In this document: piece after piece, positions 5,408 to 56,778 of the stretch
How the letters are laid out: every line of letters starts with the position of its first letter
Numbering within the stretch: the first letter of the stretch is position 1
Virus record (IMG/VR): IMGVR_UViG_3300033076_001137
Coordinates: 1 to 64,000 of that record
Strand: one strand, 5' to 3'
DNA from: a virus
Lineage: Duplodnaviria > Caudoviricetes
Length of the DNA: 64,000 bases
The notes under the pieces: generated by a model
What the model saw: only the letters and a program-made list of their open reading frames with translations
Databases searched by the model: none
Told to the model about the DNA's origin: nothing
Made by a program: the position numbers and the translations under genes

Positions 5408-5415
5408 TTAATTAT
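5408..5415 (-). promoter_or_regulatory. ATANTTA(A) motif, putative late promoter
   Basis: ATAATTAA about 19 nt upstream of ATG 5389. Confidence 0.5.
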
Positions 5416-7007
5416 TCCGCAGGAGAGTCATCAACGACTGTGCATCCAACCGAGAGCAGAATGCTGGCTGCGCTCGCTGCGTTCTCAAGCGCCGATCTGA
5501 CCACTTTCAGTGGATCAATGATGCCAGATTCGAGTGTATCAACGAAGCCTTCGCTCGCGGCGTCGTAACCCATGCTTCCCCGAAGCCTCTCAACGCGCGC
5601 CAGAACCATCTCAGGGTTTCGACCGGCGTTTGTAACTATTTGTCTTAATGGAGCCGTGCAAGCTTGCAGTACGACCTCGGCGCCTTGGCAGAAGGAATCT
5701 CCCCTGCTACGCGGAATAGACTTTCTAACTCGGGCTGCCGCTCGAACCAAAGCAGTTCCACCGCCCGGTACTACGCCTTCCTCTACAGCAGCTTTGGTCG
5801 CGTGGAGAGCATCGTCAACTCGATCGCGCCTCTCCTTCAGCTCAGGTTCTGTAGCGCCACCAACACGAAGAACAGCGACCCCACCAGCTAGACGAGCAAC
5901 ACGACGTCGGAGCGCATCACGATCATTTTGATCCAAAGTCGGATCGTCAAGCTGCGACTTAATCTCGCTAGCTCGAGACTGGATCGACTCCTTGCTTCCC
6001 GCAGCGTCCACAATCACCGTCTTGTATCTTCCAACGACTGCTTTCTTGCAACGACCCAGCTCATCAAGCCGAACGCTCGCAATCTCAGAATCACTTGAGA
6101 GAACCTTCGTGTTGAGCAGAACGGCTAGATCCTGCATCGCATGTAATCTATTCTCGCCGAACTCAGGACCCTTGATCGCGCAAACCTGCAGAATCCCCTT
6201 CGTTCTATTGACGACAAGGCCCTGCATCGCCTCACCGTCGACATCATCAGCGATGATGAGAAGAGGCTTTTGGGAAGAGTGAATCTTCTCCAGAATCGGC
6301 AGGATCTCCTTCAAAGCAGAAATCCTACTGTTCGTTAGAAGAACGTAGGGAGAATCTAGGGAGGACACCATCCGTTCGCTGTCGGTAACGAAATAGGGCG
6401 ACAGATAGCCACGATCAATTTCGGCGCCTTCAACGACCTGAAGACTTGTAGAGAAGCCCTTCGCCTCCTCTACAGTGATAGTCCCGTCACGTCCCACAGC
6501 TCGCATCGCTTGAGAGAGCAGCTCACCGATCTCTCGCTCTCCATTAGCCGAGATTGTCCCAACCTGAACGATCTCCTCGTCCGAAGTGATGGGCTTGGCG
6601 ATATCACGAAGGGCAGATATGACAGATGAAACAGCCCAAGACATCCCGGCTCGAACCTCGGGACCGCTGTGATCGCCCGAGAGGACGCGAAGTCCACCGT
6701 TGAAGATCGCGTGGGTGAGAACTGTCGCGGTTGTTGTGCCGTCACCTGCAGTATCGCACGTTCTGCTTGCGGCTTCCTTCACGATTTGAGCGCCCAAATT
6801 CATGTTTCTGTCTCTGAGGTCAATCGACTTCGCGACAGTAACGCCGTCTTTCGTGACAATCGGCGGAGCTCCAGGTACCTCGATGATCACATTCTGACCA
6901 GAGGGTCCCATCGTAACGCGAACTGCCTGCGCGAGAGTATCAACACCCTTACGCAGGCAATCACGGGCATCATCGTCGAATATAAGAGACTTGAAGCCCT
7001 CAGTCAT
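5412..7007 (-). CDS. groEL: Chaperonin GroEL (phage-encoded)
   Basis: TMGPSGQNVII, TKDGVTVAK, AGDGTTTATVL, ISANG, GGVAVLRVG, VEEGVVPGGG; no GGM tail. Confidence 0.98.
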   Translation of the reverse strand: MTEGFKSLIFDDDARDCLRKGVDTLAQAVRVTMGPSGQNVIIEVPGAPPIVTKDGVTVAKSIDLRDRNMNLGAQIVKEAASRTCDTAGDGTTTATVLTHAIFNGGLRVLSGDHSGPEVRAGMSWAVSSVISALRDIAKPITSDEEIVQVGTISANGEREIGELLSQAMRAVGRDGTITVEEAKGFSTSLQVVEGAEIDRGYLSPYFVTDSERMVSSLDSPYVLLTNSRISALKEILPILEKIHSSQKPLLIIADDVDGEAMQGLVVNRTKGILQVCAIKGPEFGENRLHAMQDLAVLLNTKVLSSDSEIASVRLDELGRCKKAVVGRYKTVIVDAAGSKESIQSRASEIKSQLDDPTLDQNDRDALRRRVARLAGGVAVLRVGGATEPELKERRDRVDDALHATKAAVEEGVVPGGGTALVRAAARVRKSIPRSRGDSFCQGAEVVLQACTAPLRQIVTNAGRNPEMVLARVERLRGSMGYDAASEGFVDTLESGIIDPLKVVRSALENAASAASILLSVGCTVVDDSPAE

Positions 7008-15157: not shown

Positions 15158-15872
15158 ATGAGTCAGGTGGTTCTTCCTTCGGTTCCAACCTTATGTCGTA
15201 ATCTTTTCCTAGTAAACTGACAAGCTCGTCAGAGTAGCCCTGACCTTTCTTCGGATACTTGTCCTTAAGATATTTCTGAGCTTTTGTCACTACGCTTCCC
15301 TTGACATCAACAAGGGACGTGTAATTCTTTATAAGACGAGCGACGTCTCCTGCGAAAGAGTCCATATCGATCTCTGGCTCATCGCCCTCAGCCTCCATGA
15401 GGAAAGAGAGACGACGTTTTCTGAGGCTCTCGGTCTGTGTCTTATTCGACGCTTTCTTTATCGCAAGATCGTCAGCTTTCACCAGAAATTTCTCGATCGG
15501 ATCATCAGCGCTTGGAATTTTGGTTCCTTGAACTGGAGATGCAGTGGGAGTTCCCGGAGCTGGCGGGGCTCCAGGCGCCGTAGGAGCGGGCGGAGCACCT
15601 GGGGCTGCAGCTGGTGCAGCAGCGCCAAGACCTGCGAGAGGATCGGGTGCAGCAGCTCCAGCGGTGGGATCAGGTGCAGGGGCTGCCGCTGCCGCTGCAG
15701 GATCTGCGGGTGCAGCAGTGGGATCCGCGGGCGGTGTGGTGGGATCAGGTGCAGGGGCTGCCGCTGCAGGATCTGCGGGAGGATCGCCCTCAGCCTCAAG
15801 CAGAAAGCGCATGCTGGTCCCGTACATTTCCTTGATGACGCTCTTACGTAGAGCCCTCTTGTCAAGTCTCAT
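15117..15872 (-). CDS. Hypothetical protein with long Pro/Ala linker
   Basis: ORF 251 aa; FLLEAE and FLMEAE motifs; duplicated DNA repeat in the linker. Confidence 0.75.
   Translation of the reverse strand: MRLDKRALRKSVIKEMYGTSMRFLLEAEGDPPADPAAAAPAPDPTTPPADPTAAPADPAAAAAAPAPDPTAGAAAPDPLAGLGAAAPAAAPGAPPAPTAPGAPPAPGTPTASPVQGTKIPSADDPIEKFLVKADDLAIKKASNKTQTESLRKRRLSFLMEAEGDEPEIDMDSFAGDVARLIKNYTSLVDVKGSVVTKAQKYLKDKYPKKGQGYSDELVSLLGKDYDIRLEPKEEPPDSYATGAKSSGGAAG
15666..15778. repeat. Direct repeat in a Pro/Ala linker
   Basis: GTGGGATCAGGTGCAGGGGCTGCCGCTGC occurs twice. Confidence 0.75.
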
Positions 15873-16594
15873 TTCGCAGCCTCCACCATACGCTCTATCC
15901 TACGGACCCTCTCCTCTATGAGCGCCCAACGAAGCTCCTTCATCATAGAAAAGATGTAAGAGCGACGATCCTTGAGGTAGTCACGATAGTATGAGTGCTC
16001 CCAGCAATCAAGTACGATCACGGGATGAGCCGAGAAAGGAATTCCGACGTTGTGAAGATCAACCACCACGTTGACGTAGCGCTTGAGAAGGAAGCTGTAG
16101 GCGGTGACGACCCAGCCATTTCTTGAAGCCATGGCGCATGCGATAAAATCTCGCTGCCAAGCATCGAAGCTTCCGAAATCCCTCTCAAGACGCATGTACG
16201 TGAGAGAGTCCATCGCAATATTCGATCTCACGTCAGAGATATTTTCGAAAAACATACCGTGGAGGAACGCAGCGTTGACGTTGTGAACCTCGTCCAGCTT
16301 CAAATTTCTGAACGCTGAGTTATTGGGATTCGAATTCTCGCGATCGGCAGTGTCAAGCGCCGCTGAGATCTCGTTGGCAGCCTTAACGTAGCCGTCCATG
16401 AGCTCCTGATGCGCAGCCTTGTTCTCCTCGCTGAGCTTCTCCGTGGTAAGGTCGTACTTATTGCTCGAGAGAACGTAAGCTTCGTTAAGAGGAGCTGGGC
16501 GAGTCTCTTGCTTCTTCGGCAGCGTGAGCGACTCCCTAATTATCGCGACGATGTCCTGGTCCGTTATTCCTTCGATGTTACTCGGCTTTTTCAT
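15869..16594 (-). CDS. Fe/Mn superoxide dismutase with N-terminal extension
   Basis: Metal ligands AAHQE, FLHGMFF, DCWEHSYY; ERDFGSFDAW; about 38 aa extra N-terminus ending in LNE. Confidence 0.88.
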   Translation of the reverse strand: MKKPSNIEGITDQDIVAIIRESLTLPKKQETRPAPLNEAYVLSSNKYDLTTEKLSEENKAAHQELMDGYVKAANEISAALDTADRENSNPNNSAFRNLKLDEVHNVNAAFLHGMFFENISDVRSNIAMDSLTYMRLERDFGSFDAWQRDFIACAMASRNGWVVTAYSFLLKRYVNVVVDLHNVGIPFSAHPVIVLDCWEHSYYRDYLKDRRSYIFSMMKELRWALIEERVRRIERMVEAAK

Positions 16595-18389: not shown

Positions 18390-18815
18390 TTAATTATCAC
18401 GCTCTGAGGATGATTGTCTAACCTTTATACCCGCGCTCGACAGAAGATCGAGACCTGATGTGTCACGATACTTCTCAAGATAGATCACCTCGTCGATTCG
18501 AGCATTGATGATAGCTTTTGCGCACATGCGACATGGACTGAGACTTACGTACATCTTCTTACGTTTTGGACTGTTAAAATCTAGCTTTATCAAAGCGTTC
18601 ACCTCAGCGTGAATAAAACCGGACTCCCCCGGCGCCTCGGACTCTCTGCAATTCGAACCCCCGGTGTGATCACCGTTGTAGCCCAAAGATAGAAGCTGCG
18701 TGTTATCATCGGTCACGATGATCGCTGCGACCTTGAAGGATGGATCGGAGGAACGTCTAGCGATAGTATTAACGACGTCTCCCCAAACTTGATCCCAAGT
18801 TGGACGATCATTCAT
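18390..18815 (-). CDS. dCMP deaminase
   Basis: GYNG, HAEVNA and SPCRMC zinc-binding motifs. Confidence 0.92.
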   Translation of the reverse strand: MNDRPTWDQVWGDVVNTIARRSSDPSFKVAAIIVTDDNTQLLSLGYNGDHTGGSNCRESEAPGESGFIHAEVNALIKLDFNSPKRKKMYVSLSPCRMCAKAIINARIDEVIYLEKYRDTSGLDLLSSAGIKVRQSSSERDN

Positions 18816-19660
18816 GCGCCAGCTCCATCGAAAATGCTCTCAATGCTTACGCTCGGAGGAAGCGAAAACCCAGCTGCTTTTCTATGACCCCCGCCTCCGA
18901 ATCGTTTTGCGACTTCACTGACGTCAGCATCATCATGATGAGCTCGAAGACTCACCTTCACCTGTCGAGTATCGTGATCGTAGTACCAGATGAGTGCGTA
19001 ATCGCATCTTGGTGAAAGAGCGTTTCCAATCTCGGACATCCAGTGAGGAGAATTAACGACAAGAACATCCTTACCGTCAATCTTCCTCGGAGCGGCGTGC
19101 TTTGCGATCTTGGAAATAACAGTCTTCGAATATGCTAGGATGTAGGCCCCGCGTTCCTGAGCGTTATCGACCGCAGAGTCATCGAGGTACTTGTCGAACT
19201 CCTCGAAGTCGAAAGGAACCATGTCAAAAGCTGCGGCGAACTCTTTGCTGTACGGGATCTCCCACTTCCAGAGGTCCCGATCTTCGATGTGACGGATCAT
19301 TCGTGGAGGTTCCTTGCCCGGATGAAAGAACTTCCATGCCAGCATTGCACCGCTGTGATTCATATCGAAATGAGTGCAGGAAATGTCGTGAAGCTCCACC
19401 ATAGCAGATTTATGATGATCGATGACGATGAGACCCTTCGCGTCCTTTATCATCCTCTTAGTCGTAGAGTTATCATAAGAGAAATCCACAATGACCACAT
19501 TCTTGCCCTTTACGTCCGGAGGAGCCTCTCCATATTTCGCAGCGTGATACTCAGCTCGATCTCCGAGAAGCTTCCAGGCTGCGTAAGCAGCTCCGAAACC
19601 GTCAGTGCAATTTCCGTGATAAATGACAAGCTCAACGCTAGACGGCTCTAGAATAGACAT
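18812..19660 (-). CDS. DHH/DHHA1 phosphoesterase (nanoRNase-like)
   Basis: YHGNCTDG, VDFS, IDHHKS, DRDLW, FGGGGHRKAAG. Confidence 0.9.
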   Translation of the reverse strand: MSILEPSSVELVIYHGNCTDGFGAAYAAWKLLGDRAEYHAAKYGEAPPDVKGKNVVIVDFSYDNSTTKRMIKDAKGLIVIDHHKSAMVELHDISCTHFDMNHSGAMLAWKFFHPGKEPPRMIRHIEDRDLWKWEIPYSKEFAAAFDMVPFDFEEFDKYLDDSAVDNAQERGAYILAYSKTVISKIAKHAAPRKIDGKDVLVVNSPHWMSEIGNALSPRCDYALIWYYDHDTRQVKVSLRAHHDDADVSEVAKRFGGGGHRKAAGFSLPPSVSIESIFDGAGA

Positions 19661-19677
19661 GTTCCCTCTTCACCAAA

Positions 19678-20277
19678 TTATTCCGCAAGAAGGTCGGAAT
19701 TACACATGATGGGATGATGACGGAAACATCTCGGCTCGTACATGCTCTTTCCCCCCACTTCGATCTCAAGATCACTATCGCTTAGCTTTGCGGTGTAATA
19801 CGCATCGTTTCCGCAAACCGGGCACACGGCCGAGCATTTCTCGATCTTGGTAGCGTATGGCATCAATCTCTCGATCTCGTCGAACGGCTTGCATCGTGCA
19901 CTAAGATCAAGACTGGCGACCAACACTGTAGTGCCCCTCCGCATGATCTGGAGGACCGCTGAGGTCACTCCATCAATCATGAAGGCTTCGTCTATAGCCA
20001 CCGCATCAATTGTCTCCTCGTATGACTGGAAGTGGTTCCAGAGCATCTGCCCAGAATTGACGCAATGGGCTGGCCACTTGGCGCCTGAATGGGTGGTGAT
20101 ATGGGAAAGCGAATACCTCTCATCCATCGTTGGTTTGTAAGCAATTACCTTCCTTCCCTGGAGCTTTAATCTCTCCATGGAAGCAACGAGACGTGTGGTC
20201 TTAGATCCCCACATAGGTCCAGTATAGATGATAAGATCAGGGTTGTTTGGCATTCGCTCTTCCATAATCGTCCTCAA
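19678..20277 (-). CDS. tdk: Thymidine kinase
   Basis: GPMWGSKTT, IDEAFM, C..C..., EVGG..MYEPRCFRH. Confidence 0.92.
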   Translation of the reverse strand: MRTIMEERMPNNPDLIIYTGPMWGSKTTRLVASMERLKLQGRKVIAYKPTMDERYSLSHITTHSGAKWPAHCVNSGQMLWNHFQSYEETIDAVAIDEAFMIDGVTSAVLQIMRRGTTVLVASLDLSARCKPFDEIERLMPYATKIEKCSAVCPVCGNDAYYTAKLSDSDLEIEVGGKSMYEPRCFRHHPIMCNSDLLAE

Positions 20278-20650
20278 TTCTTATGGGTTCATTATCATGA
20301 CGATCACCGATCTCGATCAGCTTACAATCCTCGAGAGCGGTCAATCGATACGGACACTCCGACAGTACGTGAATAACGTCGCCCTTCCGTAGAATTCTTG
20401 ATTGCATCGGGTGCTTTTCTGGACGGTTCATTGTTTCAGAATTTCCAAAATCGACCCTGACGGTTCCATCCAAAACAACGAAAACTTCGTTCTTCAACGT
20501 ATGATACTTTAGACTTGTCCTGTGACCCTCGCGAATATGAATGATCTTGCCATGAGTTCCGTGAACACCGTCCCAAACGTAGGACTCCCCCCAGGGTCTA
20601 TTCTCGAACCGGGCTGTCGAAGTCCAAATATGCTTAGGCGCTCTTCCCAT
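20237..20650 (-). CDS. Cupin, mannose-6-phosphate isomerase type II C-terminal-like
   Basis: RPWG...KIIHI..GHRTSLKYH..KNE..VVL.G...IEI......IRIEDDYGR. Confidence 0.8.
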   Translation of the reverse strand: MGRAPKHIWTSTARFENRPWGESYVWDGVHGTHGKIIHIREGHRTSLKYHTLKNEVFVVLDGTVRVDFGNSETMNRPEKHPMQSRILRKGDVIHVLSECPYRLTALEDCKLIEIGDRHDNEPIRIEDDYGRANAKQP

Positions 20651-21653
20651 CGAGTCCCCACCATCTTAGTGTAATTTCGAGACCTTCCTCGAACTGCACA
20701 TGCGGTACCCAACCAAGAGCCTGATTGATGATGTTGACATCAGCAAGCGTGTCCCTCACATCGCCCGGGCGTGCTGGAGCATGTGCAATCTCGAGATTGG
20801 GAAATCGATCCTTGAACATATCGAGAACCTCGATATTCGCGTACGACTTTCCAGATCCAACATTGAAAGCGTGACCCCGGAGATCATGCTGCGTCTCAGC
20901 TGCCAGACGATTGGCTCGAGCAACGTCGCCAACGAATACAAGGTCACGTGTCTGGTACCCATCACCGTCCGAACGGAGAGGACGACCTTCCTTCAACGCG
21001 CTGCACCAGGCTGCAACGGCGGTGGAGTATGGTGACTTACCGTCCTGACCCGGTCCATACACGTTGAAGTAACGAAGGCACACGCTCTTCTGCTGATACA
21101 GACGTCCGAATAGCGTGAGATAGTCCTCGATCATGCGCTTCTGAAGACCGTAAGGAGACTGCGGGTTCGAAGGAGCGAACTCGGTGGTGGGAAGCTGCTC
21201 GATGTCACCATAGATCGCGGAGGAGGAAGAGAACACGAACTTCGTGCTTCCGCCGCGGAGGGCGTCGAGAAGTGCAAGAGTGCGTGTGACATTGAGATCA
21301 TTCGATTCGAACGGGTACTCAACAGAGAACCCAACGCGTGGCATCGCTGCAAGATGGAAGATGACATCATAGCGTCCGGACTTCGAATGTCCTAGGACTT
21401 CTCTATGTGCAAAATCACCCTCAATGACAAGCACGGAGCCCGTCTTTCGCTCCGACTCTGGATGCTTCAGCTCGAAATCTGGGAGCAGATCTGCAGGACA
21501 TGCTCGAAAATTGAGACCATTCAGAGCATCGAGAGAGCCGTTGGACATGTCATCGACAACATCGACAGTATAATCATGAGCTACGAGCTCACGAACGACG
21601 TGGGAACCAATAAAACCGCATCCGCCCGTTACAAGGGCTCGCTTATTACTCAT
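20634..21653 (-). CDS. NAD-dependent NDP-sugar epimerase/dehydratase (GalE/WbpP-like)
   Basis: TGGCGFIGSH, HLAA, SSSAIYG, YGLQK (YxxxK), RYFNVYGPGQD, RDLVFVGDVA. Confidence 0.92.
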   Translation of the reverse strand: MSNKRALVTGGCGFIGSHVVRELVAHDYTVDVVDDMSNGSLDALNGLNFRACPADLLPDFELKHPESERKTGSVLVIEGDFAHREVLGHSKSGRYDVIFHLAAMPRVGFSVEYPFESNDLNVTRTLALLDALRGGSTKFVFSSSSAIYGDIEQLPTTEFAPSNPQSPYGLQKRMIEDYLTLFGRLYQQKSVCLRYFNVYGPGQDGKSPYSTAVAAWCSALKEGRPLRSDGDGYQTRDLVFVGDVARANRLAAETQHDLRGHAFNVGSGKSYANIEVLDMFKDRFPNLEIAHAPARPGDVRDTLADVNIINQALGWVPHVQFEEGLEITLRWWGLDGKSA

Positions 21654-21656
21654 TTG

Positions 21657-22655
21657 TTACCTCTTGAAAAAGTGATAGCCAGGATGTTCAGTGCTGACAA
21701 TTAGACGACGAGCGTGACTCTCGTCCTTCATCTTTCTAGCGCGAAAAGAGATGAGAATGTTAGACCAATCGTTCACGAGCGATCGAGCCGCAGGATCTTC
21801 TAGAGCATCGCTCAGTTTTGGAGATACAAGCACGAATCCGTCCTTGATCGCTCCCTCGCTCGCTTCCCACACCGCTCTTTCGACGCTCATCAAATCATTG
21901 ATGGGAAAGCTCTTGGGAAGAGCTGGCATCGGACGACCTAAGTTATCGCTTGAATTTGCGATCGCGTTGAGCATCTCGAAATCTCGCTCATAGCAGTGGA
22001 GGGAATTGGAAGTGTGAACGTACTCTCCAAGATCAACCTCAAGCTCATTCGCAAGAACTTCCTGCATAATCGTAAAAGCAGGAACGTCGTACGCGATTCC
22101 GAGAATGATATCGCTGGAGCGCATGTTAACGTGCAGATGAAGTTTGCCATCACGGATGAAGAACTGGAGCGCAAGTGTGCATGGTACGTCCTTAACAGCG
22201 TGAAGAGAGTCATCGGGAGTTCTGATATGGATGACAGCACGACGGCTATCAGGATCACGCTTGAGTTCTTCCTTCACGTACTTCCACTGATTCAGACCGC
22301 CGTCGGCAATTCGCGGATGCAGCTTGAAAATTCTAGCGCCGTAAGCTGAATTTGCCGTCAGACCGTCATCACTGATGTCCTTCCAGAAAGAAGCGTAACG
22401 GGAGATCCACTCGGTGGAATTGTTACCGCTCATATACCATAACGTCTCAGCCACGAAATACGATAGCGAAAAATTACGAGCTTCGATATGAGGAAGACGA
22501 TCGCGAACGTTTCTGATCCTAAACTGAACGCCTAGCTTCTCCTTGATCTTCATACCGCGTGGTGATGAGACGAAATCCGACTCATCACGAATCATGCGGC
22601 ACAGATCAACGTAAGCGTGCGAGAAATTTCCGTAAGTCTTCATAGCTTCAGCCAC
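21657..22655 (-). CDS. Thymidylate-synthase homologue, dCMP-type (putative dCMP hydroxymethylase/methylase)
   Basis: AYGARI, DSRRA, PCT, MRSSD, GIAYDVPAF (Asp at the E. coli ThyA Asn177 specificity position), SLHCYERD. Confidence 0.8.
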   Translation of the reverse strand: MAEAMKTYGNFSHAYVDLCRMIRDESDFVSSPRGMKIKEKLGVQFRIRNVRDRLPHIEARNFSLSYFVAETLWYMSGNNSTEWISRYASFWKDISDDGLTANSAYGARIFKLHPRIADGGLNQWKYVKEELKRDPDSRRAVIHIRTPDDSLHAVKDVPCTLALQFFIRDGKLHLHVNMRSSDIILGIAYDVPAFTIMQEVLANELEVDLGEYVHTSNSLHCYERDFEMLNAIANSSDNLGRPMPALPKSFPINDLMSVERAVWEASEGAIKDGFVLVSPKLSDALEDPAARSLVNDWSNILISFRARKMKDESHARRLIVSTEHPGYHFFKR

Positions 22656-23155
22656 TCCCTAATTTCGAGCGTCTCACGCTCGAGATTTTCGTCATCAACC
22701 CAGATCGTAAGGACCTCACACTTCGTCCACTTCTCAAACTCTGCATAGAGGCCGTCAAGCCTCTCGAGCGCGTGAGAGTCAATGTAACTGTGGAGGTCGT
22801 CACATATCCCATTATAACTCTTCCTGCGGCAGATAACAATCTTACCGTTGGCTTCCGCAAACTTTTCGTCAACCTTACGAAGAACCTCGTCATCTGTCTC
22901 ACGGTTGAAGTGCCTTGAGTAAACCCATTCCGACGCATAATTCCTGTCCATGATGACACTAGCGCGTGTCTGATGGAGAAAATCAGTCAGGAATGTGGCT
23001 CCGTATTTCAGAAGATTCTTGAAATAGCTCGGATCACGTAGATCAGTGAACCACTCTCCCGAATTCTTGAATACTGGGAGTCCCAGTTGACGGGAAAGTT
23101 CAGCAGCGACTTGCGTCTTTCCCGTCATATCTGGACCTTCGAGTGCGATCAACAT
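22640..23155 (-). CDS. Deoxynucleoside monophosphate kinase (thymidylate-kinase-like)
   Basis: LEGPDMTGKT P-loop and MDRNYASEWVY. Confidence 0.85.
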   Translation of the reverse strand: MLIALEGPDMTGKTQVAAELSRQLGLPVFKNSGEWFTDLRDPSYFKNLLKYGATFLTDFLHQTRASVIMDRNYASEWVYSRHFNRETDDEVLRKVDEKFAEANGKIVICRRKSYNGICDDLHSYIDSHALERLDGLYAEFEKWTKCEVLTIWVDDENLERETLEIREWLKL

Positions 23156-23156
23156 C

Positions 23157-24212
23157 TTAACCTCGCTTTGCGTGTTGTTCGATCATATCAATCTTATGCT
23201 CGGGACTAAAATCTACAACCTTCCGGAGAGCCTCTTCCTGGCGAGCGATAATATCAACTCGCTCAGCGACGGTCGTCTGGGAAAGTCGAGTCACTGCTCG
23301 TACGACGTCCTCGGGATCATTGACAAGAAACTCTCCAAGCCCTACGGGTCGAGCGTGAACGTATTCATTAGGAATGAGCGATACGACACCTGCCTGGATC
23401 GCCTCGGTGAAGCGCATGGTGATGTTGCCGTACGGTGTGTAATCATCACGTGTGATGTGCGTCACGGCAATCGAGTTGTTGATGATTCCGAAGATCTCCT
23501 TGTACGCGAGACGATGTCCGAAGGCAACATGTGGATTCTCGCGGAGAAGGACGCTCGGATCCCTGCGCTCAGGGCTTCTCTCCAACCAGTTGCCCCAGAC
23601 CTTTGTCTGAATTCCGCGCTCTCGAAGAGCGCTGCTTGGCTGCGAATAGTACTTCTTAAATTGTGGATCACGATCGTAGTTGTTACCAACGTATGTGTAG
23701 TTGTACGAGTACTCAGCCGGCTTGAAGAGTCGACGTGCAGAGGATGCCCACGGCATAGAAATACGCGAACGCGTCTGCTCTCGTGGATTGATGCATGCAT
23801 CAGCGAGCTGAGCGTTTGGCCACCGTTGTTCCTCCTCGGGTGTCATCTTCAGATCGCCATCGTGAATGATGATGGGAACTCCCTTCTCGTGATAGTAATC
23901 AAGGAGAGCACACTGGCGTCGATAATCAGGTTCGGTCGCTCGATCACCACCGAGAGTAGAATCATTCTTCCAAGTTGGCCAACGCCACTCAACGAAAAGA
24001 ACGTCGCCATCAGGAAATCCGGTGTCATCGTACTGAACGCCCGGATAAGGATCATCATCACGACGCTGCTGAACCTGGATCACCGTATGTCCACGGCGTT
24101 GCATCTCATCCACAAGATCAACTCGACCTCCTCGATAGTGATCTGGTGTTGCGGAGACAGTCTGCTTTTCGAAAGGGGTCACGAAGCCCCAGAAAGAGTA
24201 TAGAATTCGCAT
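23157..24212 (-). CDS. GT-B glycosyltransferase, T4 DNA beta-glucosyltransferase-like
   Basis: 351 aa; YTYVGNNYDR / VWGN / ITMRFTEAIQAG / FLVNDPEDV parallel the recalled T4 BGT segments IYGGSFR / FFGN / ITLRVWE / FYVNNRAEL. Confidence 0.65.
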   Translation of the reverse strand: MRILYSFWGFVTPFEKQTVSATPDHYRGGRVDLVDEMQRRGHTVIQVQQRRDDDPYPGVQYDDTGFPDGDVLFVEWRWPTWKNDSTLGGDRATEPDYRRQCALLDYYHEKGVPIIIHDGDLKMTPEEEQRWPNAQLADACINPREQTRSRISMPWASSARRLFKPAEYSYNYTYVGNNYDRDPQFKKYYSQPSSALRERGIQTKVWGNWLERSPERRDPSVLLRENPHVAFGHRLAYKEIFGIINNSIAVTHITRDDYTPYGNITMRFTEAIQAGVVSLIPNEYVHARPVGLGEFLVNDPEDVVRAVTRLSQTTVAERVDIIARQEEALRKVVDFSPEHKIDMIEQHAKRG

Positions 24213-24220
24213 GATTTACC

Positions 24221-27200
24221 TCACATAACCTTGATTTTCTTACCTTTTGTCGACAACCCGAAGTCAGAACGATCAACCTCGGCAACGCATAGGGTGTATG
24301 GTTCGAATCCAATCTTACCATCCCAATCCCACATGAACATCTTTTCCGTATTTCCGGCCTCACCCATCACCTGAAGCATCAAGTAGGGCTTTCCATTCTT
24401 TGTCTTCTTCTCGACCGAGCTCACGATGACAAACCAGTAGATGTCAAGTCTCTCCCAACTGTCGATGGAGTAAACCTCCTTGTCTTTGAACTTTTGACGA
24501 AGCTCAGGAGACACGAGAGAGAGTGGATCCATCTTACCAGAAAGTTCGATCTGCATAAGTGCCATCTCGCGACGGGTCCATTCGGGCATACCCTCAGTCT
24601 CGACTATGAGCTCTCGGAACTTCTTAATTCCACGCTGCGGATCTTTCTTGGCCCACTTCTTGATATCCTCGGCATTTTCGACAAGAACGTGGTGCATCTG
24701 CTTCCACGAAGAGAACTGCCTATCCTTTCCGACAACTTTCATCGACTCGAAAGCGTTAGCCTTGATAAGAGCCTCGAGGGCTCGACGGTTGAATTTCGAT
24801 GGACGCCACTGACCGTCCTCCTTCCACAGCATCTCCTCGATGCTTCGGTACGGACGACATGTCACGATCTCCTCGATCGCCGTCTCGCCAACGCCCTTAA
24901 TCGTGTTGAACGATGGAATAAGCAGCTTGCGCTCCGAATCAACGGACCACTGGTTCGTGGAGAGATTGATATCGACGTTGCCGATTTCGTACCCCATCTT
25001 CTTCACGTCAGAGATTGCCTGAGATCGATCGTCTGGATTGCCAATCATCGATTCCATGTAAGCGCAGAGCCACTCAGCCTCGTAGTAAGTCAGCAGCCAG
25101 GCGCAGTAGAAAGAGTCGATAGCGTAGGCCAGAGCGTGTGAGAGGTTGAAGCCGTAACCTGCGAAGAAGAGGATGTCATCCCAGAGCTTCGAAGCGACAG
25201 ATTCCTTGATACCGTTGCCGACCGCGCCGTTGACGAAGTTGTCCTTCATCGCCTTCGCTTTCTTCATCGATTCCTCAGGGTTGCCGCCCTGCCGCTTCAG
25301 GATGTTCTTACGTACCTTGTCACACTCGGACTTCGGGAACCCAGCCACCACGTTACAGAGCTGCATGAGCTGCTCTTGGAAGATGATGCACCCGAACGTC
25401 GGCTCGAGAACCTGCTTGATGAGCGGGTGCTTGTAGTCGATATTTCGAGGGTTCGCTTTCGCCTCGAGGTAGAGCTTATCAACCTTTGCTGCAAGAGGAC
25501 CGGGTCGGAAAACCGAGGTCAGGGTTGCGATATCGATGATCGATCTGGGCTTCGCGTTCTGGAAGAGACGTTGGGCTCCCTTGCTGGTGAGCTGGAATAC
25601 ACCGGGAGTTCTGGAAGTTGCCTCGTGGTAGACATTCTCATACACCTTCTGATCATCGAAGTTGATCACGTCAGTTGCCATATGTTGATCGAACCACGTC
25701 TTAACCTCTTGGAACGTCGGATTCTTGATCCCATGATGACGCTGGAGGATGAGCTCAATCGTTCGATGGATGGTTCGAAGAGTTTCAAGCCCTAGCAGGT
25801 CGAACTTAACCCAGCCCAACATCTCGAGATGTTTATAGTTCATACCCTCGACCCACGGCGTCTGCTGCTCACCCTTCGCCATGATGAGTGGCATTCGCTC
25901 CTGGATGCGCTCCGAGATGATGACACCACCAGCATGTCTACCAAGCGCCTTGTTCTGCCGGAAGAGAACCTTGATCGATTCGGAAACCTGTGGGTATCGA
26001 TCGATGAATTCTCGGAAGCTCTGGCAGTGCTCGTAGCTGTCCTCGAAAGTCAGGACGAAGAGGTTCTTGTCATCGCCAACCTTCTTGGTTGCCTCCATGA
26101 CCTCTTTCTCGACAGTCTTCAGGGCTGCGTTGACCTCCTCGAGCGGAATATCGTACAGTCGAGAAACATCTCGGATGAGTGTCTTGAGCTTGAAGGTGTT
26201 GTAGTTCGAGATCGGAACGATGTTCTCGCCGCCGAACTTCTCGCGTAGGATCGAGAGGAGCAGGTCGCGGTTCTCAACGTCGGTATCGATGTCAGGCAGA
26301 CCCTCACGGTCGGGCGACAGGAATCGCTCGAAGAGAAGACCGTACTTGATTGGATCAACGTCGGTGATGCCAAGTACGTAGCAGACGAGGGAGCCGGCAC
26401 CGGATCCTCGACCGACGCCGACGAACATCTGCTCCTTCGCGGCAGAGATGATCTCCTTCATCGTGAGGAAGTAGGACGCGAAATCCTTCTGCTTGATGAC
26501 GTCAAGCTCGTAACGGGCACGCTCGACGTACTCGGGATTCTTATCGAAACCCTTCGCAGCGAGACCAGCCTCGACCGACTCAACGAGAGCCTCATTCGCG
26601 GTCTTGCCCTTCGGGATGACGTAGCTCGGTAGCTTCACGGATCGATCAGGCTGAACGTCACCGATCTCCTCGTGAGCAAGATGCCAGGTACGCTCGACCG
26701 CCTTGCGAACAAGCTCCTCCTCACCGCGGTAGAAATCATCGGTCCCACGGGAGATCATGAACTCATCCCAGACCTGAGTCGCGTTCTTCGGGTAGAGCTC
26801 ACACTTCAGCTGGTCCTTGCTCTTCGGGATCGAATCCGCCGAGAGGTCAGCGTAGTTGAGCCAGCCGAGCTTCTTGTAGATCTCGCGTTCCTTCCAATGC
26901 TCCGGACGCGCGTAGTGGGAGTCGCAGGTGACAACGAGCTGGTCAGTCATGCCCTGACGCTTGGCGAACTCCATGATCGCTCGATTGACGATGTGCTGGG
27001 CTGGCAGACGGTTGAACTGAAGCTCGAGCATCACGTTCTTACGACCCACCGCCCAGGCAAGGCTGTCGAACGAATTTCCCACACGATTGATAACACGTTC
27101 CATGATCGAGGGATCATTGAGGAGTCGGCTGTTCAGACTCTCAAAGCTGTGCTCCTGCAGCTCACGGAAGACCTCAAAAGCGAGTGGACCACCGATGCAA

Positions 27201-27862
27201 GCAGTCGAGACGATGAAATTGTCATCCTCCTGCGCCTCCTTAAGCATTGCCAGGTCGACTCGAGGGAACTTGTAGAAACCCTCGGAGTAACCGCGACTCA
27301 CTAGACCGAAGAGGCGCTCAAGACCCTTGCTGTGTCGCGGGAGGACCACGAGGTGGTGACGACGGTTGATCGGGTTGAAGTGCTTCGTGCTCTTCGTCTC
27401 GTCCTCGTTCTCGATAGTGAGAGCCGAAGCGTCGGTATCGATGCCGATCGTCTCATCATTCTCATCGGTGACAGCGATGATGGGAGTCACCACGCTCTCG
27501 GGCTTCTCCTTCGCCTTCGCGTGACTCTTACGATCTCGCTTGAGCTGCTGCCACTCATGATACTCAGCCTGCCAGGCGTTGAGATCAGGGTGGATGTACA
27601 TCTCACAGCCTGGAATGAACTTCAAGTTCTTCCCAGCCTTCTTCAGCTTATCAGCGTGAAGCCACGCGTGACCGAAGCCGTTCATCTGACCGTGATCGGT
27701 CAGGCTCCAACCATCGAGACCGTTCTCAAGACAGAAGTCGATGTGTTCTTGCGGGTAACCAAGTCCGTCGAACGTGGTTACTTAGGAGAATCCGCTGTGC
27801 GAGTGAAGCCCAAAGAAGCGGCTCGGCACTCGCACGGGATTCTCATTTCCTCCGGTGCTCAT
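24221..27862 (-). CDS. dnaE: DNA polymerase III alpha (family C); interrupted by an in-frame TAA at codon 27
   Basis: PHP motifs LHSHSGFS*VTTFDG and TDHGQMNG; GRGSGAGSLV, PDIDTD, GRHAGGV, KFDLLGL, RPGPL, GYGFNLSHA. The true ATG at 27862 is in frame with the track ORF (27685) and overlaps the upstream stop (ATGA). Confidence 0.95.
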
Positions 27863-35147: not shown

Positions 35148-35531
35148 TCAGTAGCCGTCCCTCAATCTTCGGCAGATCTTATCATGCTTTCGAAGATACG
35201 CTGAGTGGAGCTCGTCGGGTGTGATTCCGACCAGCTTCAGTGTTGTGTAGAAGTACTTCATCGCGTCAACGATCTCCTCGAGAAATGCCTCCCGATCGAG
35301 ATGAGGAACATCGGTCTGCCGATGCGACTTTGCATTCTTCAGCTCCTGGAGAGCCTCGAACATCTCCTCAACTCCTTTCAAGGTAACGTCCCTGAGGAGG
35401 ATTTGAGATTCCTTCTTCGTCACATCAACGGGCCATTCTGGGTAATAGCCCTCGAAGCGTTGACACAGAAGATGCATAAACTCCTCGCGGAGCTCAAACA
35501 TCTCATCAAGCTTGTCAGCTGGCTTCGACAT
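35148..35531 (-). CDS. All-alpha NTP pyrophosphatase (dUTPase/dCTPase, MazG-like)
   Basis: EEMFEALQE...EEIVDAMKY ExxE/EExD metal motif. Confidence 0.75.
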   Translation of the reverse strand: MSKPADKLDEMFELREEFMHLLCQRFEGYYPEWPVDVTKKESQILLRDVTLKGVEEMFEALQELKNAKSHRQTDVPHLDREAFLEEIVDAMKYFYTTLKLVGITPDELHSAYLRKHDKICRRLRDGY

Positions 35532-35822: not shown

Positions 35823-36632
35823 TCAGCTCTGTCGAGTGGGTACCCACCAGGTGGTTCTTCCATCGAGAGTCTCCTCTCTTACCACCTCTTCTCCGTCATC
35901 ATCTTTATCTCTTCCATAACAAAGAAACATCTCTCCGTAACCACCTGACTCGTTATTAAACCCTTTATATGATTTGATTGTCGCCCCCTGAGACTCGTAT
36001 GAGTCCTTGAGCACTCTCTTGATGCTGTCGTTGAGAGCTTCGAACTCCTCCAGGCTCAGAGAGTCGACCTTTCGATGGGGAGAGAGCCGGGCCATCCAGA
36101 GCGAATCAGCCTTCACGTAGTTGCCGACCCCGGCGATCACGCTCTGATCCATGAGAGCCTGCGCGAGGGTCCACTTCGGCTTTCGCATCATCGCGGCCTG
36201 GAAGCGCTCATGGGTGACATCATCGCCGAGCATATCGGGTCCCAGCGACTTCAGCTTCTGGGAAAGCATCCGCCGACCCTGGGACCACTTCAGAGTCCCG
36301 AAGTTCCGGGTGTCATTGTAGTACACGTCCGTCCCATCGTCGAGGCTCAGACGAACTCTGGCGTGGTTGGAAGCGCTTCCTGACCAATGACCTGTCATGC
36401 CTAACGTCGACCACAGCGATGAGTCACCGCCATCGAGCAGGATATAGATGAATTTACCATGACATCCAGCACCGATGACCCGTTTAGGAAGCTGGGCAAC
36501 AAGGTCAGCGTAACCATCGAACGGCTTCTTCTTGTAGCGACCCGATAGGATCTCGATTCTCTCGATTGTCCGGCCCGACAGCACATGAGCAAGAGCTTCG
36601 GCCGCCAGCTTACATTCCGCGCCCTCAGGCAA
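35823..36632 (-). CDS. Fpg/Nei-family DNA glycosylase with a zincless finger
   Basis: N-terminal MPEGAE, HGKFI, LGMTG, H2TH MDQSVIAGVGNYVKAD; C-terminal GRTTWWVP without four Cys. Confidence 0.9.
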   Translation of the reverse strand: MPEGAECKLAAEALAHVLSGRTIERIEILSGRYKKKPFDGYADLVAQLPKRVIGAGCHGKFIYILLDGGDSSLWSTLGMTGHWSGSASNHARVRLSLDDGTDVYYNDTRNFGTLKWSQGRRMLSQKLKSLGPDMLGDDVTHERFQAAMMRKPKWTLAQALMDQSVIAGVGNYVKADSLWMARLSPHRKVDSLSLEEFEALNDSIKRVLKDSYESQGATIKSYKGFNNESGGYGEMFLCYGRDKDDDGEEVVREETLDGRTTWWVPTRQS

Positions 36633-37056
36633 CTTTCACCTCCTCATTGTAGATCTTCTTTAGATGATCATGATAGTCGTTAAGCGCGTGATCCTTCGGC
36701 TGCACAGCGCGCCAGTCGCCGAGGATGAAGATCCGATAGGCATCATCTCCGTACTTGCCCACACCGTGGAGCTCCTTCGCCTGCTTCCAACCCCCCGCAG
36801 CGTACTGAGCTGACATCCGCTTGAGCGTCTGCGTTCGCTTGCGCTGCATGCCGAGAGGCTTGATGAGCACCTCGAGGTCATCATCGGGTGCTGCAGCGAG
36901 ATCCTGCGGAGTTGGCCAGCGCTGGAACATCTCCTCGACGACTGGCTCCATCTGCGCACGTTTCGTTAGGTTGAGGCATAGGCAGCAGACGAGGATCTTC
37001 CAACCGTCGGGCCAGTACTTTTCCTGAATGAGACCGAATTTAGGGGGAATCCACAT
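36625..37056 (-). CDS. MBD4-like HhH-GPD mismatch DNA glycosylase (stand-alone catalytic domain)
   Basis: LIQE...WKILV....LN.T, LIKPLGM, ELHGVGKYGDDAYRIF, PKDHALNDYH parallel the recalled MBD4 glycosylase (ELHGIGKYGNDSYRIF, PEDHKLNKYH). Confidence 0.85.
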   Translation of the reverse strand: MWIPPKFGLIQEKYWPDGWKILVCCLCLNLTKRAQMEPVVEEMFQRWPTPQDLAAAPDDDLEVLIKPLGMQRKRTQTLKRMSAQYAAGGWKQAKELHGVGKYGDDAYRIFILGDWRAVQPKDHALNDYHDHLKKIYNEEVKVA

Positions 37057-37095: not shown

Positions 37096-37473
37096 TTATC
37101 CGACGCCCGCGAATCCTGCTGATCCTGTCACGATGCTGAAGCTTGAGGTCGGAACGCTCGTCAATCCTGCTAGAACGACGAAGGGTATGGAAGCTCCCGT
37201 CGAGCTGGAGAGGAAGAGCCTATCAACCCTGAACTCATTCGAGTAGCTGCTTCCGGAGGGAACGACAAAGTAATTGGTTCCCTGGACACCGAGCTGCGTA
37301 AAGCCCACACGAAGCTCAAGAGCGCTACGATTCTGGACAGTGAAGAACCGTGTCACAAACGGAAAGGTCACAGCTTGAACTGTCGTCACGTTGGAGGCTG
37401 TGACGAAAGGAGTCGCTGAGACCTGGTAAGCTGGGACGTATCCCTCACTCATAACTGGATTATTTAAGCCCAT
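37096..37473 (-). CDS. Hypothetical protein, beta-rich, probable structural
   Basis: ORF 125 aa; ATATTTAA at 37501-37494. Confidence 0.7.
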   Translation of the reverse strand: MGLNNPVMSEGYVPAYQVSATPFVTASNVTTVQAVTFPFVTRFFTVQNRSALELRVGFTQLGVQGTNYFVVPSGSSYSNEFRVDRLFLSSSTGASIPFVVLAGLTSVPTSSFSIVTGSAGFAGVG

Positions 37474-37511: not shown

Positions 37512-38324
37512 TCAATACGGCGGAGTATACATTCCCTCGGGGAAATGACCGAGACTTAGTATAATCTCATCGATGGCTTTCGCCGTCTGCTCACAATCTT
37601 GCACCTTAATCGATCGATTGAAAGATTTGAGTGCCTCGTATATCTCGAAGTCATTTCCCATAGGATCACAGCGATCGCCCACGAACCAGACCACATCTGA
37701 TGGAAAATGACGAAGGACATACGACTTGTCCCATCCCTCTGGGTAAATGTCGAACGATGTCGAGCCGCCGAGCTTGACCGTAAGTTTTTTGCTAAGAGCG
37801 TACAGACGATCACGAAGAGTGACCAGGGTCGCAATTCTCAAGTTTGACTTCTTGTCGATCCTTTCGAATTCCTCACGATCTTCATGACCTGCCTCACGCC
37901 CAATTGGACACCAGTTCATCATAGAACCACGATACGATACGAACTGACCCGTTAGAGGAAGCTCAGGAACGACCTCCATGAGGTCTCCCTGCATCGAATG
38001 CAGTATCTTGTGAAACTGACGCCAATCATTTCCTAAGTAATCTCTCATCGAGATCGATGGAACCTGAGATTTCCATGATCCTTCCGCATAGATCCAGTGC
38101 TCGGTTCCATTACAGGAAAAAACCTCTAGACCCTTCTCGAAAAGTTCATGATCTACCTGCTCGATAACGTACGCCAGAGTGGAACCAGTTACTATTCCGA
38201 CCCTGGCACATTGCAAGAGCTCGATCAGCTTGTCCTTATTCTTTCTCGTGATCTTCTTACGTGGAGGAGTTAGCGTCCCGTCGAGATCGAAGAGAACTAT
38301 CGTTCTATTGTTCATGCTATACAA
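37512..38324 (-). CDS. Phosphomannomutase, eukaryote-type HAD family
   Basis: FDLDGTLTPPR, NWCPIGR, GGSTSFDIYPEGWDKSY, FVGD...GNDFEIY match the PMM1/PMM2/Sec53 pattern. Confidence 0.88.
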   Translation of the reverse strand: MYSMNNRTIVLFDLDGTLTPPRKKITRKNKDKLIELLQCARVGIVTGSTLAYVIEQVDHELFEKGLEVFSCNGTEHWIYAEGSWKSQVPSISMRDYLGNDWRQFHKILHSMQGDLMEVVPELPLTGQFVSYRGSMMNWCPIGREAGHEDREEFERIDKKSNLRIATLVTLRDRLYALSKKLTVKLGGSTSFDIYPEGWDKSYVLRHFPSDVVWFVGDRCDPMGNDFEIYEALKSFNRSIKVQDCEQTAKAIDEIILSLGHFPEGMYTPPY

Positions 38325-38957
38325 TTAGTATCCAAATGCTTCTATCGTGTGTTTGAAAGGATCACCAGGGATCGCGCGGACTTGACAAAGCATCTCCTCC
38401 GCAAGCCAGCAAATCTCACGTTGAGCGTCTGGCTTCATCCGAAGACCGAGGAAGTGGTTGAAAGAGCGCCAGTTGAACATGAGATCTGCGGTGATCTGAT
38501 TACCATATGGAAGGTAAAAGCGAGCGCTTTCCTTAGCTCGCTTTCGACTCATGCCACCTTCGACAAGACGCTCGAGTGTCTCATGATAACGCATGAGAGC
38601 GTCCTCCATGAAAGCGATGTATCTCGCCTGCTCCTCAAGCGGCCAATCCTTTGGGAGATAGTACTTGTCATCCTTGAGTTCCTTGTAACGTGCCGACTCT
38701 GCGTTGATCGAGACACCAATCCGATGCTTGAGAAGCTGGATGTGAGTCGCGATGTCTGTAGTGACAAGGAAGCTCAGAGAGCTCTTCTCGAAGGGGGTCT
38801 CATGTCCATTCTCGGCCAGCATTCTCAGGAGCGAGGGGACTCGTGTCTGCTTCTCTGCCGTGAGTTCCCGACTCGTGCTTGTCCATGCCGAGAGCGCGTG
38901 GCTCTCGTCGCCACCGTACCAACCGACCAATTCTACCTTGTTGTCCTGAAAGGGCAT
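38325..38957 (-). CDS. thyX: FAD-dependent thymidylate synthase
   Basis: GHETPFE, KHRIGVSINAESARY (RHRx7-8SxR variant), ESARFYLP, NWRSFNHFLGLR, DAQREI. Confidence 0.93.
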   Translation of the reverse strand: MPFQDNKVELVGWYGGDESHALSAWTSTSRELTAEKQTRVPSLLRMLAENGHETPFEKSSLSFLVTTDIATHIQLLKHRIGVSINAESARYKELKDDKYYLPKDWPLEEQARYIAFMEDALMRYHETLERLVEGGMSRKRAKESARFYLPYGNQITADLMFNWRSFNHFLGLRMKPDAQREICWLAEEMLCQVRAIPGDPFKHTIEAFGY

Positions 38958-45886: not shown

Positions 45887-45930
45887 TTCTACTCCTTCAA
45901 TATTCTAATTTCACGCTGCAGAATGTGCAA

Positions 45931-45963
45931 AGGGCGGGGAAGCTTATTCAACTTCCCCGCCCT
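45931..45963 (-). terminator. Rho-independent terminator after ssb
   Basis: AGGGCGGGGAAG-9 nt-CTTCCCCGCCCT, 12-bp stem. Confidence 0.8.
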
Positions 45964-45981
45964 TATCTTCAGATCGTCAGA

Positions 45982-53124: not shown

Positions 53125-53417
53125 TAAAGCAGCCTCATAACAGCGTTGATATCGATCGGAACTAGGATTCTAGTTCCCGGAGGGGATTGCAACCACCATC
53201 CGATTCCGCTGGCAGCAGCAATGACCCACCACATCTTGCCATCGCCGTAGGAATCGAAAGCGATCTGGTCAAGACGTTGACCTTCGACCATCACGAACTC
53301 GTTGCAGAGCAGGCTGCCAGCGCTCACTGCTTCTTTTATGCGTCGAGCAGCCGCCGGAGTCGCAAGGCGACGCTGCGTGTCCAATATGGGAGTTCTAGAG
53401 TATCTGCTGGTCGACAT
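53124..53417 (-). CDS. LysM-like baseplate protein (P2 gpX / gp53-like)
   Basis: GQRLDQIAFDSYGDGKMWWVIAAAS...PPGTRILVP. Confidence 0.8.
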   Translation of the reverse strand: MSTSRYSRTPILDTQRRLATPAAARRIKEAVSAGSLLCNEFVMVEGQRLDQIAFDSYGDGKMWWVIAAASGIGWWLQSPPGTRILVPIDINAVMRLL

Positions 53418-56524: not shown

Positions 56525-56775
56525 CAGAATCTCCTAGGAGCTCGCTTTGTGGGTGTAGAACCGTCGCCGTCTATTGATTTCACCGGCTCTTCGCTTGACA
56601 TTGCTCTCGACATCTCTGTCAAAGTCCCACCAGGGAGTGCGGAGGTAACAGCGTTGTAGTGTTGCAGGATTGAGGCGAGCTGCTCCTCCACGAGATTTCT
56701 CTCGTTCTCAGGTACCTGTTCCATCATTGACCTGTAGAACGGGCTTGACTTTATCATGTCGCTGAAGTTTGTCAT
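56524..56775 (-). CDS. Hypothetical protein
   Basis: ORF 83 aa. Confidence 0.65.
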   Translation of the reverse strand: MTNFSDMIKSSPFYRSMMEQVPENERNLVEEQLASILQHYNAVTSALPGGTLTEMSRAMSSEEPVKSIDGDGSTPTKRAPRRF

Positions 56776-56778
56776 CTA

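Follow-up and report, generated by a model that had tools for sequence, protein, structure and literature searches.

A predicted T4-style pathway for galactosylated hydroxymethylcytosine beside the dnaE gene of an uncultured giant phage

The stretch of DNA analysed here, which we call the window, comprises the leading 64 kb of a 73.4-kb viral contig in IMG/VR (record IMGVR_UViG_3300033076_001137; estimated completeness 22%), and the contig is a fragment of a giant phage. Directly after its dnaE gene lies a string of eight genes that includes a predicted hydroxymethylase, a predicted DNA glycosyltransferase and a sugar-nucleotide epimerase. We consider it probable, at about 0.72, that this phage uses T4-style pre-replicative cytosine replacement, in which hydroxymethylcytosine bearing a galactose-type sugar takes the place of cytosine in DNA copied by a DnaE polymerase. 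An earlier reading of the same DNA, the original prediction, had proposed cytosine hypermodification with a DNA glycosyltransferase resembling T4 beta-glucosyltransferase (BGT) and an epimerase of the phage's own. That core passes the computational tests available, whereas the accompanying suggestions of 5-hydroxycytosine, of mannose and of a novel base lose ground.

The eight minus-strand open reading frames (ORFs) lie where the original prediction had placed them, at 18390-24212, immediately downstream of the DnaE-type (family C) replicative polymerase gene (24221-27862, minus strand; Pfam DNA_pol3_alpha, finger, HHH_6 and PHP) that heads the gene string. The gap between the dnaE stop and the glycosyltransferase gene is 8 nt, and neighbouring genes of the module are at most 17 nt apart or overlap by 4-41 nt, so that the eight genes are tightly coupled, as had been claimed. 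Simple promoter and terminator scans of the locus gave no signal above shuffled expectation, and operon boundaries were therefore not drawn from such signals. A megablast search with the operon found no match among 50,697 phage records.

The steps of the proposed pathway are inferred from homology, and the step assigned to the thymidylate-synthase (TS) homologue (332 aa; 21657-22655, minus strand; Pfam Thymidylat_synt E 2e-33) rests on a complete, conserved active-site signature. The best match of this protein in the Protein Data Bank (PDB) is the cytidine monophosphate (CMP) hydroxymethylase MilA (PDB 5jnh, 5b6d) at E 2e-44, with ThyA enzymes at about 1e-23. We aligned it with database records of E. 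coli ThyA, T4 gp42, RB69 gp48, the SP-10 deoxyuridine monophosphate (dUMP) hydroxymethylase and Bacillus phage G gp319. In ThyA numbering its active site reads E58, W80, Y94, R126, R127, D143, C146, T147, M165, R166, S167, S168, D169, G173, D177, H207 and Y209. It is identical to T4 gp42 at 16 of these 17 positions, and every distinct orthologue from related contigs has the signature unchanged, including the catalytic cysteine (C146), Glu58 and the phosphate- and ribose-binding R126, R127, R166, H207 and Y209.

Four features of this signature bear on substrate and product. The motif GIAYDVPAF, in which an Asp had been predicted to replace Asn177 of ThyA, is present, and the alignment confirms that its aspartate (D190) falls opposite ThyA Asn177, T4 D179 and MilA D186. 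Asp at ThyA position 177 confers cytosine specificity. At position 143, Leu in ThyA, the window enzyme has an Asp (D156) in common with T4 gp42 and MilA; an acidic residue here is a marker of hydroxymethylases, in which access of water leads to a hydroxymethyl rather than a methyl product (PMC13326640). The enzyme also keeps S180 and R138, equivalent to ThyA Ser167 and Arg126, which are determinants of a deoxyribose substrate and are replaced in the CMP-preferring MilA by Ala176 and Lys133 (PMC5175136). MilA and the window enzyme have in common a C-terminal extension and the aspartates at 143, 169 and 177; the kept Ser and Arg correspond to the deoxyribose state, and on this ground a CMP-specific MilA-like enzyme was rejected. 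Finally, Asp169 is kept in the window enzyme and in all of its orthologues. Because Asp177, Asp143, Ser167 with Arg126, and Asp169 occur together and are invariant among the orthologues, the best reading of the TS homologue is a predicted deoxycytidine monophosphate (dCMP) hydroxymethylase of the T4 gp42/MilA type, which would make 5-hydroxymethyl-dCMP (5hm-dCMP).

Position 169 also speaks to whether the base might instead be a glycosylated 5-hydroxycytosine, as in phages RB69, DLP3 and RL38J1. There the gene architecture would be the same, with a flavin-dependent 5-hydroxy-dCMP synthase and a sugar ether-linked to C5. Those phages do possess the same kit, with a YorR-like kinase, a glycosyltransferase of the GT-B fold and a TS homologue side by side (PMC13326640); their 5-hydroxy-dCMP synthases likewise match MilA best in the PDB, and RL38J1 also uses galactose and encodes the UDP-galactopyranose mutase Glf. 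However, all enzymes proven to make 5-hydroxy-dCMP carry Asn at position 169, where the window enzyme and its orthologues carry Asp, a rule that comes from a single paper and was tested solely in the direction from Asn169 to 5-hydroxycytosine (PMC13326640). In our alignment RB69 gp48 has N169 together with A80, V173 and F209, whereas the window enzyme has D169 and, as in T4 gp42, W80, G173 and Y209. We read the retained Asp169 as the folate-type, non-hydroxylase state and rejected a 5-hydroxy-dCMP synthase on that basis. The original prediction had named either 5-hydroxymethyl- or 5-hydroxycytosine as the base; the gp42 signature favours the former, and we regard the latter as decidedly unlikely.

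It is barely plausible, too, that the TS homologue is a pyrimidine-pool enzyme (a dTMP synthase, a dUMP hydroxymethylase or a dCMP methylase) that would leave no cytosine open to glycosylation. The SP-10 dUMP hydroxymethylase is among its closest cultured-phage matches, and the dCMP deaminase of the operon could supply dUMP. The SP-10 enzyme has Asn at position 177, however, where the window enzyme has Asp, and we do not read the latter as a dUMP enzyme. Position 143 is acidic rather than hydrophobic, T4 too encodes a dCMP deaminase, and dTMP synthesis is already covered by ThyX. The true ThyX that had been expected at 38325 is there (38325-38957, minus strand; Pfam Thy1 E 1e-34) and serves as the thymidylate synthase proper of the phage.

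Among cultured phages, the nearest TS homologue is gp319 of Bacillus phage G (L064, JN638751 233448-234494), which also has D143, D169 and D177 and adjoins a putative dCMP deaminase. Phage G, too, may make 5-hydroxymethyldeoxycytidine (5hm-dC) nucleotides.

The GT-B glycosyltransferase (351 aa; 23157-24212, minus strand; Pfam Glyco_trans_1_2 E 1e-5), GT below, had no homologue by tblastn (1e-5) in 50,697 deposited phage genomes, and a sequence search of the PDB returned nothing useful. It is part of a metagenomic family that is covered by 270 representatives at 50% identity. Modelled by AlphaFold from 32 homologues (pLDDT 93), it has a compact two-Rossmann GT-B fold that superposes on BGT over its full length, and T4 BGT is its top structural match both by Foldseek (E 1.4e-10) and by VIA. 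We also compared a profile of 67 diverse family members with T4 BGT by hhalign, an HHpred-type check that the original prediction had named. The profile matched at 96.1% (E 2.9e-9) over the C-terminal domain and at 97.1% (E 1.5e-10) in global mode, which bears out the description of a T4 BGT-like GT-B protein. R267 and E270 of the GT align with R269 and E272 of BGT, which bind UDP, and are invariant in all 67 members. Two clusters of proteins of Pfam family PF09198 (T4-Gluco-transf) are among the protein-language-model neighbours of the GT. The enzyme is thus a predicted DNA glycosyltransferase acting on 5-hydroxymethylcytosine (5hmC) and a distant homologue of BGT.

A search of IMG/VR with the GT alignment recovered 47 related loci, the longest of their contigs measuring 281 kb, and neighbours were counted within 10 kb of the GT. 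Overall, some 45 divergent giant-phage contigs have the core of GT, kinase, TS homologue and epimerase next to dnaE. The kinase gene is present in, and adjoins the GT in, 46 of the 47 loci; the TS homologue is found in 43, three of the four misses being contig-end cuts; and the GalE-like short-chain dehydrogenase/reductase (SDR), at 39% identity or more, occurs in about 41. The dnaE gene stands beside the module in nearly all loci, over a range of GT identity that extends from 94% to 39%, and a 257-kb contig from ENA (L002) has the same gene order as the window. This persistent linkage of the GT to the kinase, TS and dnaE genes is our main argument that the GT belongs to the cytosine pathway and does not serve another target. 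It is conceivable that hydroxymethylated DNA is made and that the GT and epimerase act on virion proteins, the host envelope or a small molecule, so that the DNA would hold plain 5hmC. We consider this unlikely given that linkage, the full-length profile homology to BGT specifically, and the position of the GT among early replication genes rather than structural genes.

The core of GT, kinase, TS homologue and GalE-like SDR is constant in these loci, and the sugar-tailoring content differs by subclade. Glf lies directly upstream of the GT in 19 of the 47 loci (L013-L031), at about 8.7-10.0 kb and between the TS homologue and the GT (for example L020:8763-9989). Another 18 loci have a second epimerase/dehydratase-family SDR by the GT instead of Glf (L035-L051, about 11.0-12.0 kb; for example L041:11034-12023). 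In the subgroup to which the window belongs, only the epimerase and a cupin are present.

The window SDR (339 aa; 20634-21653, minus strand) is of the extended type and is best described as a GalE-like, NAD-dependent UDP-hexose 4-epimerase. Its Pfam match (Epimerase, E 2e-48) and its top PDB matches (T. maritima GalE, UDP-GlcNAc 4-epimerases, WbpP and WbgU) agree with the WbpP/GalE-like epimerase that had been proposed. It has the S-Y-K triad and the motif SSSSAIYG; the Asp-Glu pair (TDE) of dehydratases is absent, and a dehydratase was rejected accordingly. The triad and the UDP-binding Asn179, Arg231, Arg292 and Asp295 of E. coli GalE are conserved in the 32 SDR orthologues aligned, and at the Y299 gatekeeper position of E. 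coli GalE the orthologues have an invariant Thr. In the classification of GalE enzymes a small gatekeeper residue admits N-acetylated substrates. Glf acts on UDP-galactopyranose, the product of GalE, and its presence in 19 of the 47 relatives therefore suggests a galacto-configured sugar. A sugar-1-phosphate nucleotidyltransferase (NTP_transferase) was not found in the window's contig nor in a 92%-complete relative, which makes host UDP-sugars the likely starting point. In the simplest model the donor would be UDP-Gal or UDP-GalNAc, formed from host UDP-Glc or UDP-GlcNAc by the phage epimerase.

A mannose-derived sugar, by contrast, would require the small cupin of the module to be a type II phosphomannose isomerase (PMI), the phosphomannomutase (PMM) to form Man-1-P and the SDR to tailor GDP-mannose. 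The cupin (137 aa; 20237-20650, minus strand), whose gene overlaps that of the epimerase by 17 nt, matches Pfam MannoseP_isomer (PF01050) / Cupin_2 at E 7e-6, its 26.7 bits for PF01050 standing just over the cut-off of 23.6, and its language-model neighbours are PMI-like cupins. The window also encodes a PMM of the eukaryote type (HAD-IIB; 37512-38324, minus strand; Pfam PMM E 2e-36). Set against these points, an AlphaFold2 model of the cupin (pLDDT 91) matches generic seed-storage and oxalate-decarboxylase cupins by Foldseek, with the T. kodakarensis PMI at rank 47, and a profile search of the PDB gave marginal generic matches only. A conserved His cluster or set of metal ligands was not found among the cupin orthologues, in which H50, the sole His of the motif, varies and the second motif has no His; the invariant residues are K48, K53, E55, C99 and Y101. 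A PMI-like role of the cupin as a mannose enzyme is therefore doubtful; the gene itself recurs in 24 of the 47 related loci and in L002. PMM lies 13 kb from the module in the window; of five relatives searched, two have it, far from the module and in one of them more than 140 kb away, so that no linkage of PMM to the module is seen in relatives. The SDR resembles GalE and WbpP and matches GMD at only E 3e-11 on a fragment, and the Glf of relatives indicates galactose. Since a search of the contig and of the 92%-complete relative found no nucleotidyltransferase, the GDP-mannose pathway was rejected, and mannose is very improbable as the sugar. Of the non-glucose sugars originally put forward (Gal, GalNAc or a mannose-derived sugar), the galactose type is the one that the GalE-like SDR and the Glf of relatives support.

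Two further enzymes would complete the nucleotide side of the pathway. The dNMP kinase that had been noted next to the TS homologue is there as a P-loop, YorR/Tmk-like nucleotide kinase (171 aa; 22640-23155, minus strand; Pfam AAA_28; PHROG 761, thymidylate kinase). Its best PDB match is SPbeta YorR (2axp/3kb2), and it matches RB69 gp45 by BLASTP at E 2e-5; YorR is likewise the best PDB match of the cluster kinase gp78 of DLP3 (PMC13326640). We predict that it phosphorylates 5hm-dCMP. An all-alpha NTP pyrophosphohydrolase resembling gp56 (127 aa; 35148-35531, minus strand; PHROG 12184 E 5e-12; PHROG 173) has no Pfam match. A 14-sequence profile of its family matches the RB69 gp56 dCTPase by hhalign at 92.9% (E 3.6e-7) over 121 columns to the C-terminus, and the gene adjoins dnaE in many relatives. 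This enzyme is a candidate dCTPase that would exclude dCTP. Both genes that the original prediction had placed at 35-38 kb, a dCTPase/dUTPase-like enzyme and a phosphomannomutase, are thus confirmed.

The remaining three genes of the string are general nucleotide-supply genes rather than hypermodification genes. They encode a thymidine kinase (TK; 199 aa; 19678-20277, minus strand; Pfam TK E 3e-35), a DHH/DHHA1 phosphoesterase (282 aa; 18812-19660, minus strand; Pfam DHH and DHHA1; PHROG 4771 E 2e-81) and a dCMP deaminase (141 aa; 18390-18815, minus strand; Pfam dCMP_cyt_deam_1 E 1e-19; PHROG 174 E 1e-39). The phosphoesterase, which is kept in most related loci, possibly has a role in nucleotide salvage. 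With dCMP deaminase, TK and ThyX added, the T4 parts list appears essentially complete.

Taken in order, the pathway would begin with conversion of dCTP to dCMP by the gp56-like pyrophosphatase, after which the TS homologue would use methylene-tetrahydrofolate to turn dCMP into 5hm-dCMP. The YorR-like kinase would raise this to the diphosphate and a host NDP kinase to 5hm-dCTP, which DnaE would place instead of C. The BGT-like GT-B enzyme would then glycosylate the 5-hydroxymethyl group on DNA, with a UDP-sugar as donor. To make this donor, UDP-Gal or UDP-GalNAc, the GalE-like 4-epimerase would act on a UDP-gluco sugar of the host; the window phage would attach a pyranose, and the relatives with UDP-galactopyranose mutase a furanose. 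The dCMP deaminase, ThyX, TK and DHH esterase would feed and balance the pyrimidine pools. The purpose would presumably be to shield phage DNA from restriction and CRISPR nucleases.

Several points weigh against this reading, beginning with the single-paper basis of the Asp169 rule given above. The pathway is predicted from the genes of an uncultured metagenomic fragment. The structural score of the GT against BGT stands no more than about 1 Z unit above those of many GT-B enzymes that do not act on DNA. At E of at most 0.01, PF09198 matches neither the GT nor 66 family members, all of which match PF13524 only. In the global profile alignment the residue opposite the catalytic D100 of BGT is E75, which is invariant in 32 close homologues and is Glu in only 28 of 67 members of the wide family; the acidic invariants of the whole family are D118 and D120. 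The counterpart of D100 could therefore be E75 or one of D118 and D120. Because PF09198 does not match the family and there is more than one candidate for this counterpart, we file the GT as a sister family of BGT (CAZy GT63, Pfam PF09198) and not as a member of it. The best NCBIfam match of the SDR is galE (TIGR01179), at 172 bits against an equivalog cut-off of 262, and its substrate may be the Glc, GlcNAc, GlcA or Xyl form.

Among known systems, the glucosyl-5hmC pathway of T4 (gp56 dCTPase, gp42 dCMP hydroxymethylase, gp1 kinase, alpha- and beta-glucosyltransferases) follows the same logic and has three homologous components: the gp56-like NTPase, the TS homologue with its 16 of 17 gp42 sites, and the GT, a full-length distant homologue of BGT (both are 351 aa). 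The likeness extends to position, as the polymerase gene of T4 is closely followed by genes 42 and beta-gt. The differences are also clear. The window replicase is a family C DnaE and that of T4 is the family B gp43; the window kinase is YorR/Tmk-like and not gp1-like; ThyX takes the place of Td; the TS homologue has a C-terminal extension of about 100 aa, as in MilA; and identity between the GT and BGT is about 17%. The GalE-like epimerase, joined in relatives by Glf or a second SDR, implies that the donor is not the host UDP-glucose used by T4.

The clusters of RB69, DLP3 and Rhizobium phage RL38J1 (Lee et al., NAR 2026, PMC13326640), in which a kinase, GT and TS kit is associated with 5-hydroxycytosine and arabinose or galactose, resemble the window module in the adjacency of a YorR/Tmk-like kinase, a GT-B enzyme and a TS homologue. 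These phages also encode their own sugar-donor genes, and RL38J1 combines galactose with UDP-galactopyranose mutase, as do the 19 Glf-bearing relatives of the window. Their TS homologues, however, have Asn169 and make 5-hydroxy-dCMP with flavin, in contrast to the Asp169 and folate-type site of the window enzyme. Their donor route runs from ribulose-5-P to UDP-arabinose, and its genes are all absent here; the window GT, moreover, has no detectable homologue in deposited phage genomes.

The pairing of a GT with an epimerase has precedent in the subclass II 'GT plus partner epimerase' clusters of Pyle et al. (10.1101/2023.12.21.572611; Cell Rep 2024), whose phage GTs added Hex, HexNAc or HexA to 5hmC solely when the partner epimerase was present. 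The clusters tested there make 5hmC after replication, by a C5-methyltransferase and a TET-like dioxygenase, whereas the window module would act before replication at the nucleotide level. The same study found that metagenomic GT-B enzymes often lie beside ThyS and DNA polymerase genes. Iyer et al. (PMC7824862) noted that 5hmC can also be made by giant phages that have specialised TS enzymes. The 'Moraphage' paper on aquatic giant phages (PMC12619734) mentions glycosyltransferases and not DnaE, a TS homologue or an epimerase, and we found no link from it to this clade.

The original prediction had raised the prospect of an undescribed base replicated by a family C polymerase. The polymerase assignment stands, and the claim to novelty is weakened, since epimerase-dependent glycosylation of 5hmC and GT-B/ThyS clusters by polymerase genes are already published (10.1101/2023.12.21.572611). 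Because every element has a published precedent, the module would be a further variant on a known anti-restriction strategy and introduces no new principle. The novelty lies in how the parts are combined: in a large uncultured lineage, a DnaE replicase stands together with predicted pre-replicative synthesis of 5hm-dC, a BGT-sister GT and galactose-tailoring genes that can be swapped.

A bolder version of the proposal is one that we hold only tentatively and judge rather less probable than even odds. In this version the virion DNA of the clade would contain 5-(galactosyl- or N-acetylgalactosaminyl-oxymethyl)cytosine, and the galactofuranosyl form in Glf-bearing relatives, a base chemically undescribed in any native virus. 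This base would take the place of every C, arise before replication and be copied by DnaE; the cupin would represent a new enzyme for tailoring sugar nucleotides; and sugar diversification would have a hot spot in the module, with the epimerase alone, with Glf added or with a second SDR added.

If the proposed hydroxymethylcytosine pathway is correct, T4-type pre-replicative cytosine replacement reaches a large uncultured lineage of giant phages replicated by DnaE. The sister family of BGT would then have its donor sugar set by interchangeable genes, namely the epimerase alone, or together with UDP-galactopyranose mutase or a second SDR. It is tempting to see here a natural series of DNA glycosyltransferases of differing sugar specificity, which would be useful for 5hmC labelling chemistry. 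These phages would also make it possible to test how 5hm-dCTP is handled by a family C polymerase, and hypermodified DNA may bias the metagenomic and nanopore data obtained from them.

The N-terminal end of the window dnaE (27626-27862, minus strand) has an unusual structure. Its ATG is at 27862, and an in-frame TAA lies in a 9-nt insert (TAAGTAACC) that falls within the PHP motif HSHSGFS / TFDG, so that the longest uninterrupted ORF begins only at 27685 (24221-27685). In relatives L012 and L033 the corresponding position is also occupied by an insert, with different stop codons (TGAATAACC; a TAGTGATCC-like insert). L047 keeps a shortened remnant, and in L006 and L009 the insert is absent and the reading frame is open through. 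The recurrence of the insert in independent assemblies argues against a sequencing error. In the ENA contig (L002:1-9700) dnaE is split into several pieces, with Intein_splicing domains and many small ORFs between the PHP/alpha and HHH_6 parts, and an inserted N6_N4 methyltransferase gene separates the GT from the kinase.

Elsewhere in the window, a gene for a stand-alone MBD4-type glycosylase domain (36625-37056, minus strand; E 3e-32 against mammalian MBD4) overlaps one for a Fpg/Nei-family glycosylase (35823-36632, minus strand). MBD4 removes T, U and 5hmU opposite G. Together the two glycosylases could serve to repair 5-substituted cytosines that have undergone deamination in the phage DNA, which would fit the proposed pathway. 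The ORF at 37096-37473 has neither a Pfam nor a PHROG match, and three ORFs of 1035-1323 aa at 49453-60750 have no Pfam match. The window also encodes a GroEL-type chaperonin, an Fe/Mn superoxide dismutase, RecA and a gp32-like ssDNA-binding protein (window 5412-7007, 15869-16594, 44687-46818).

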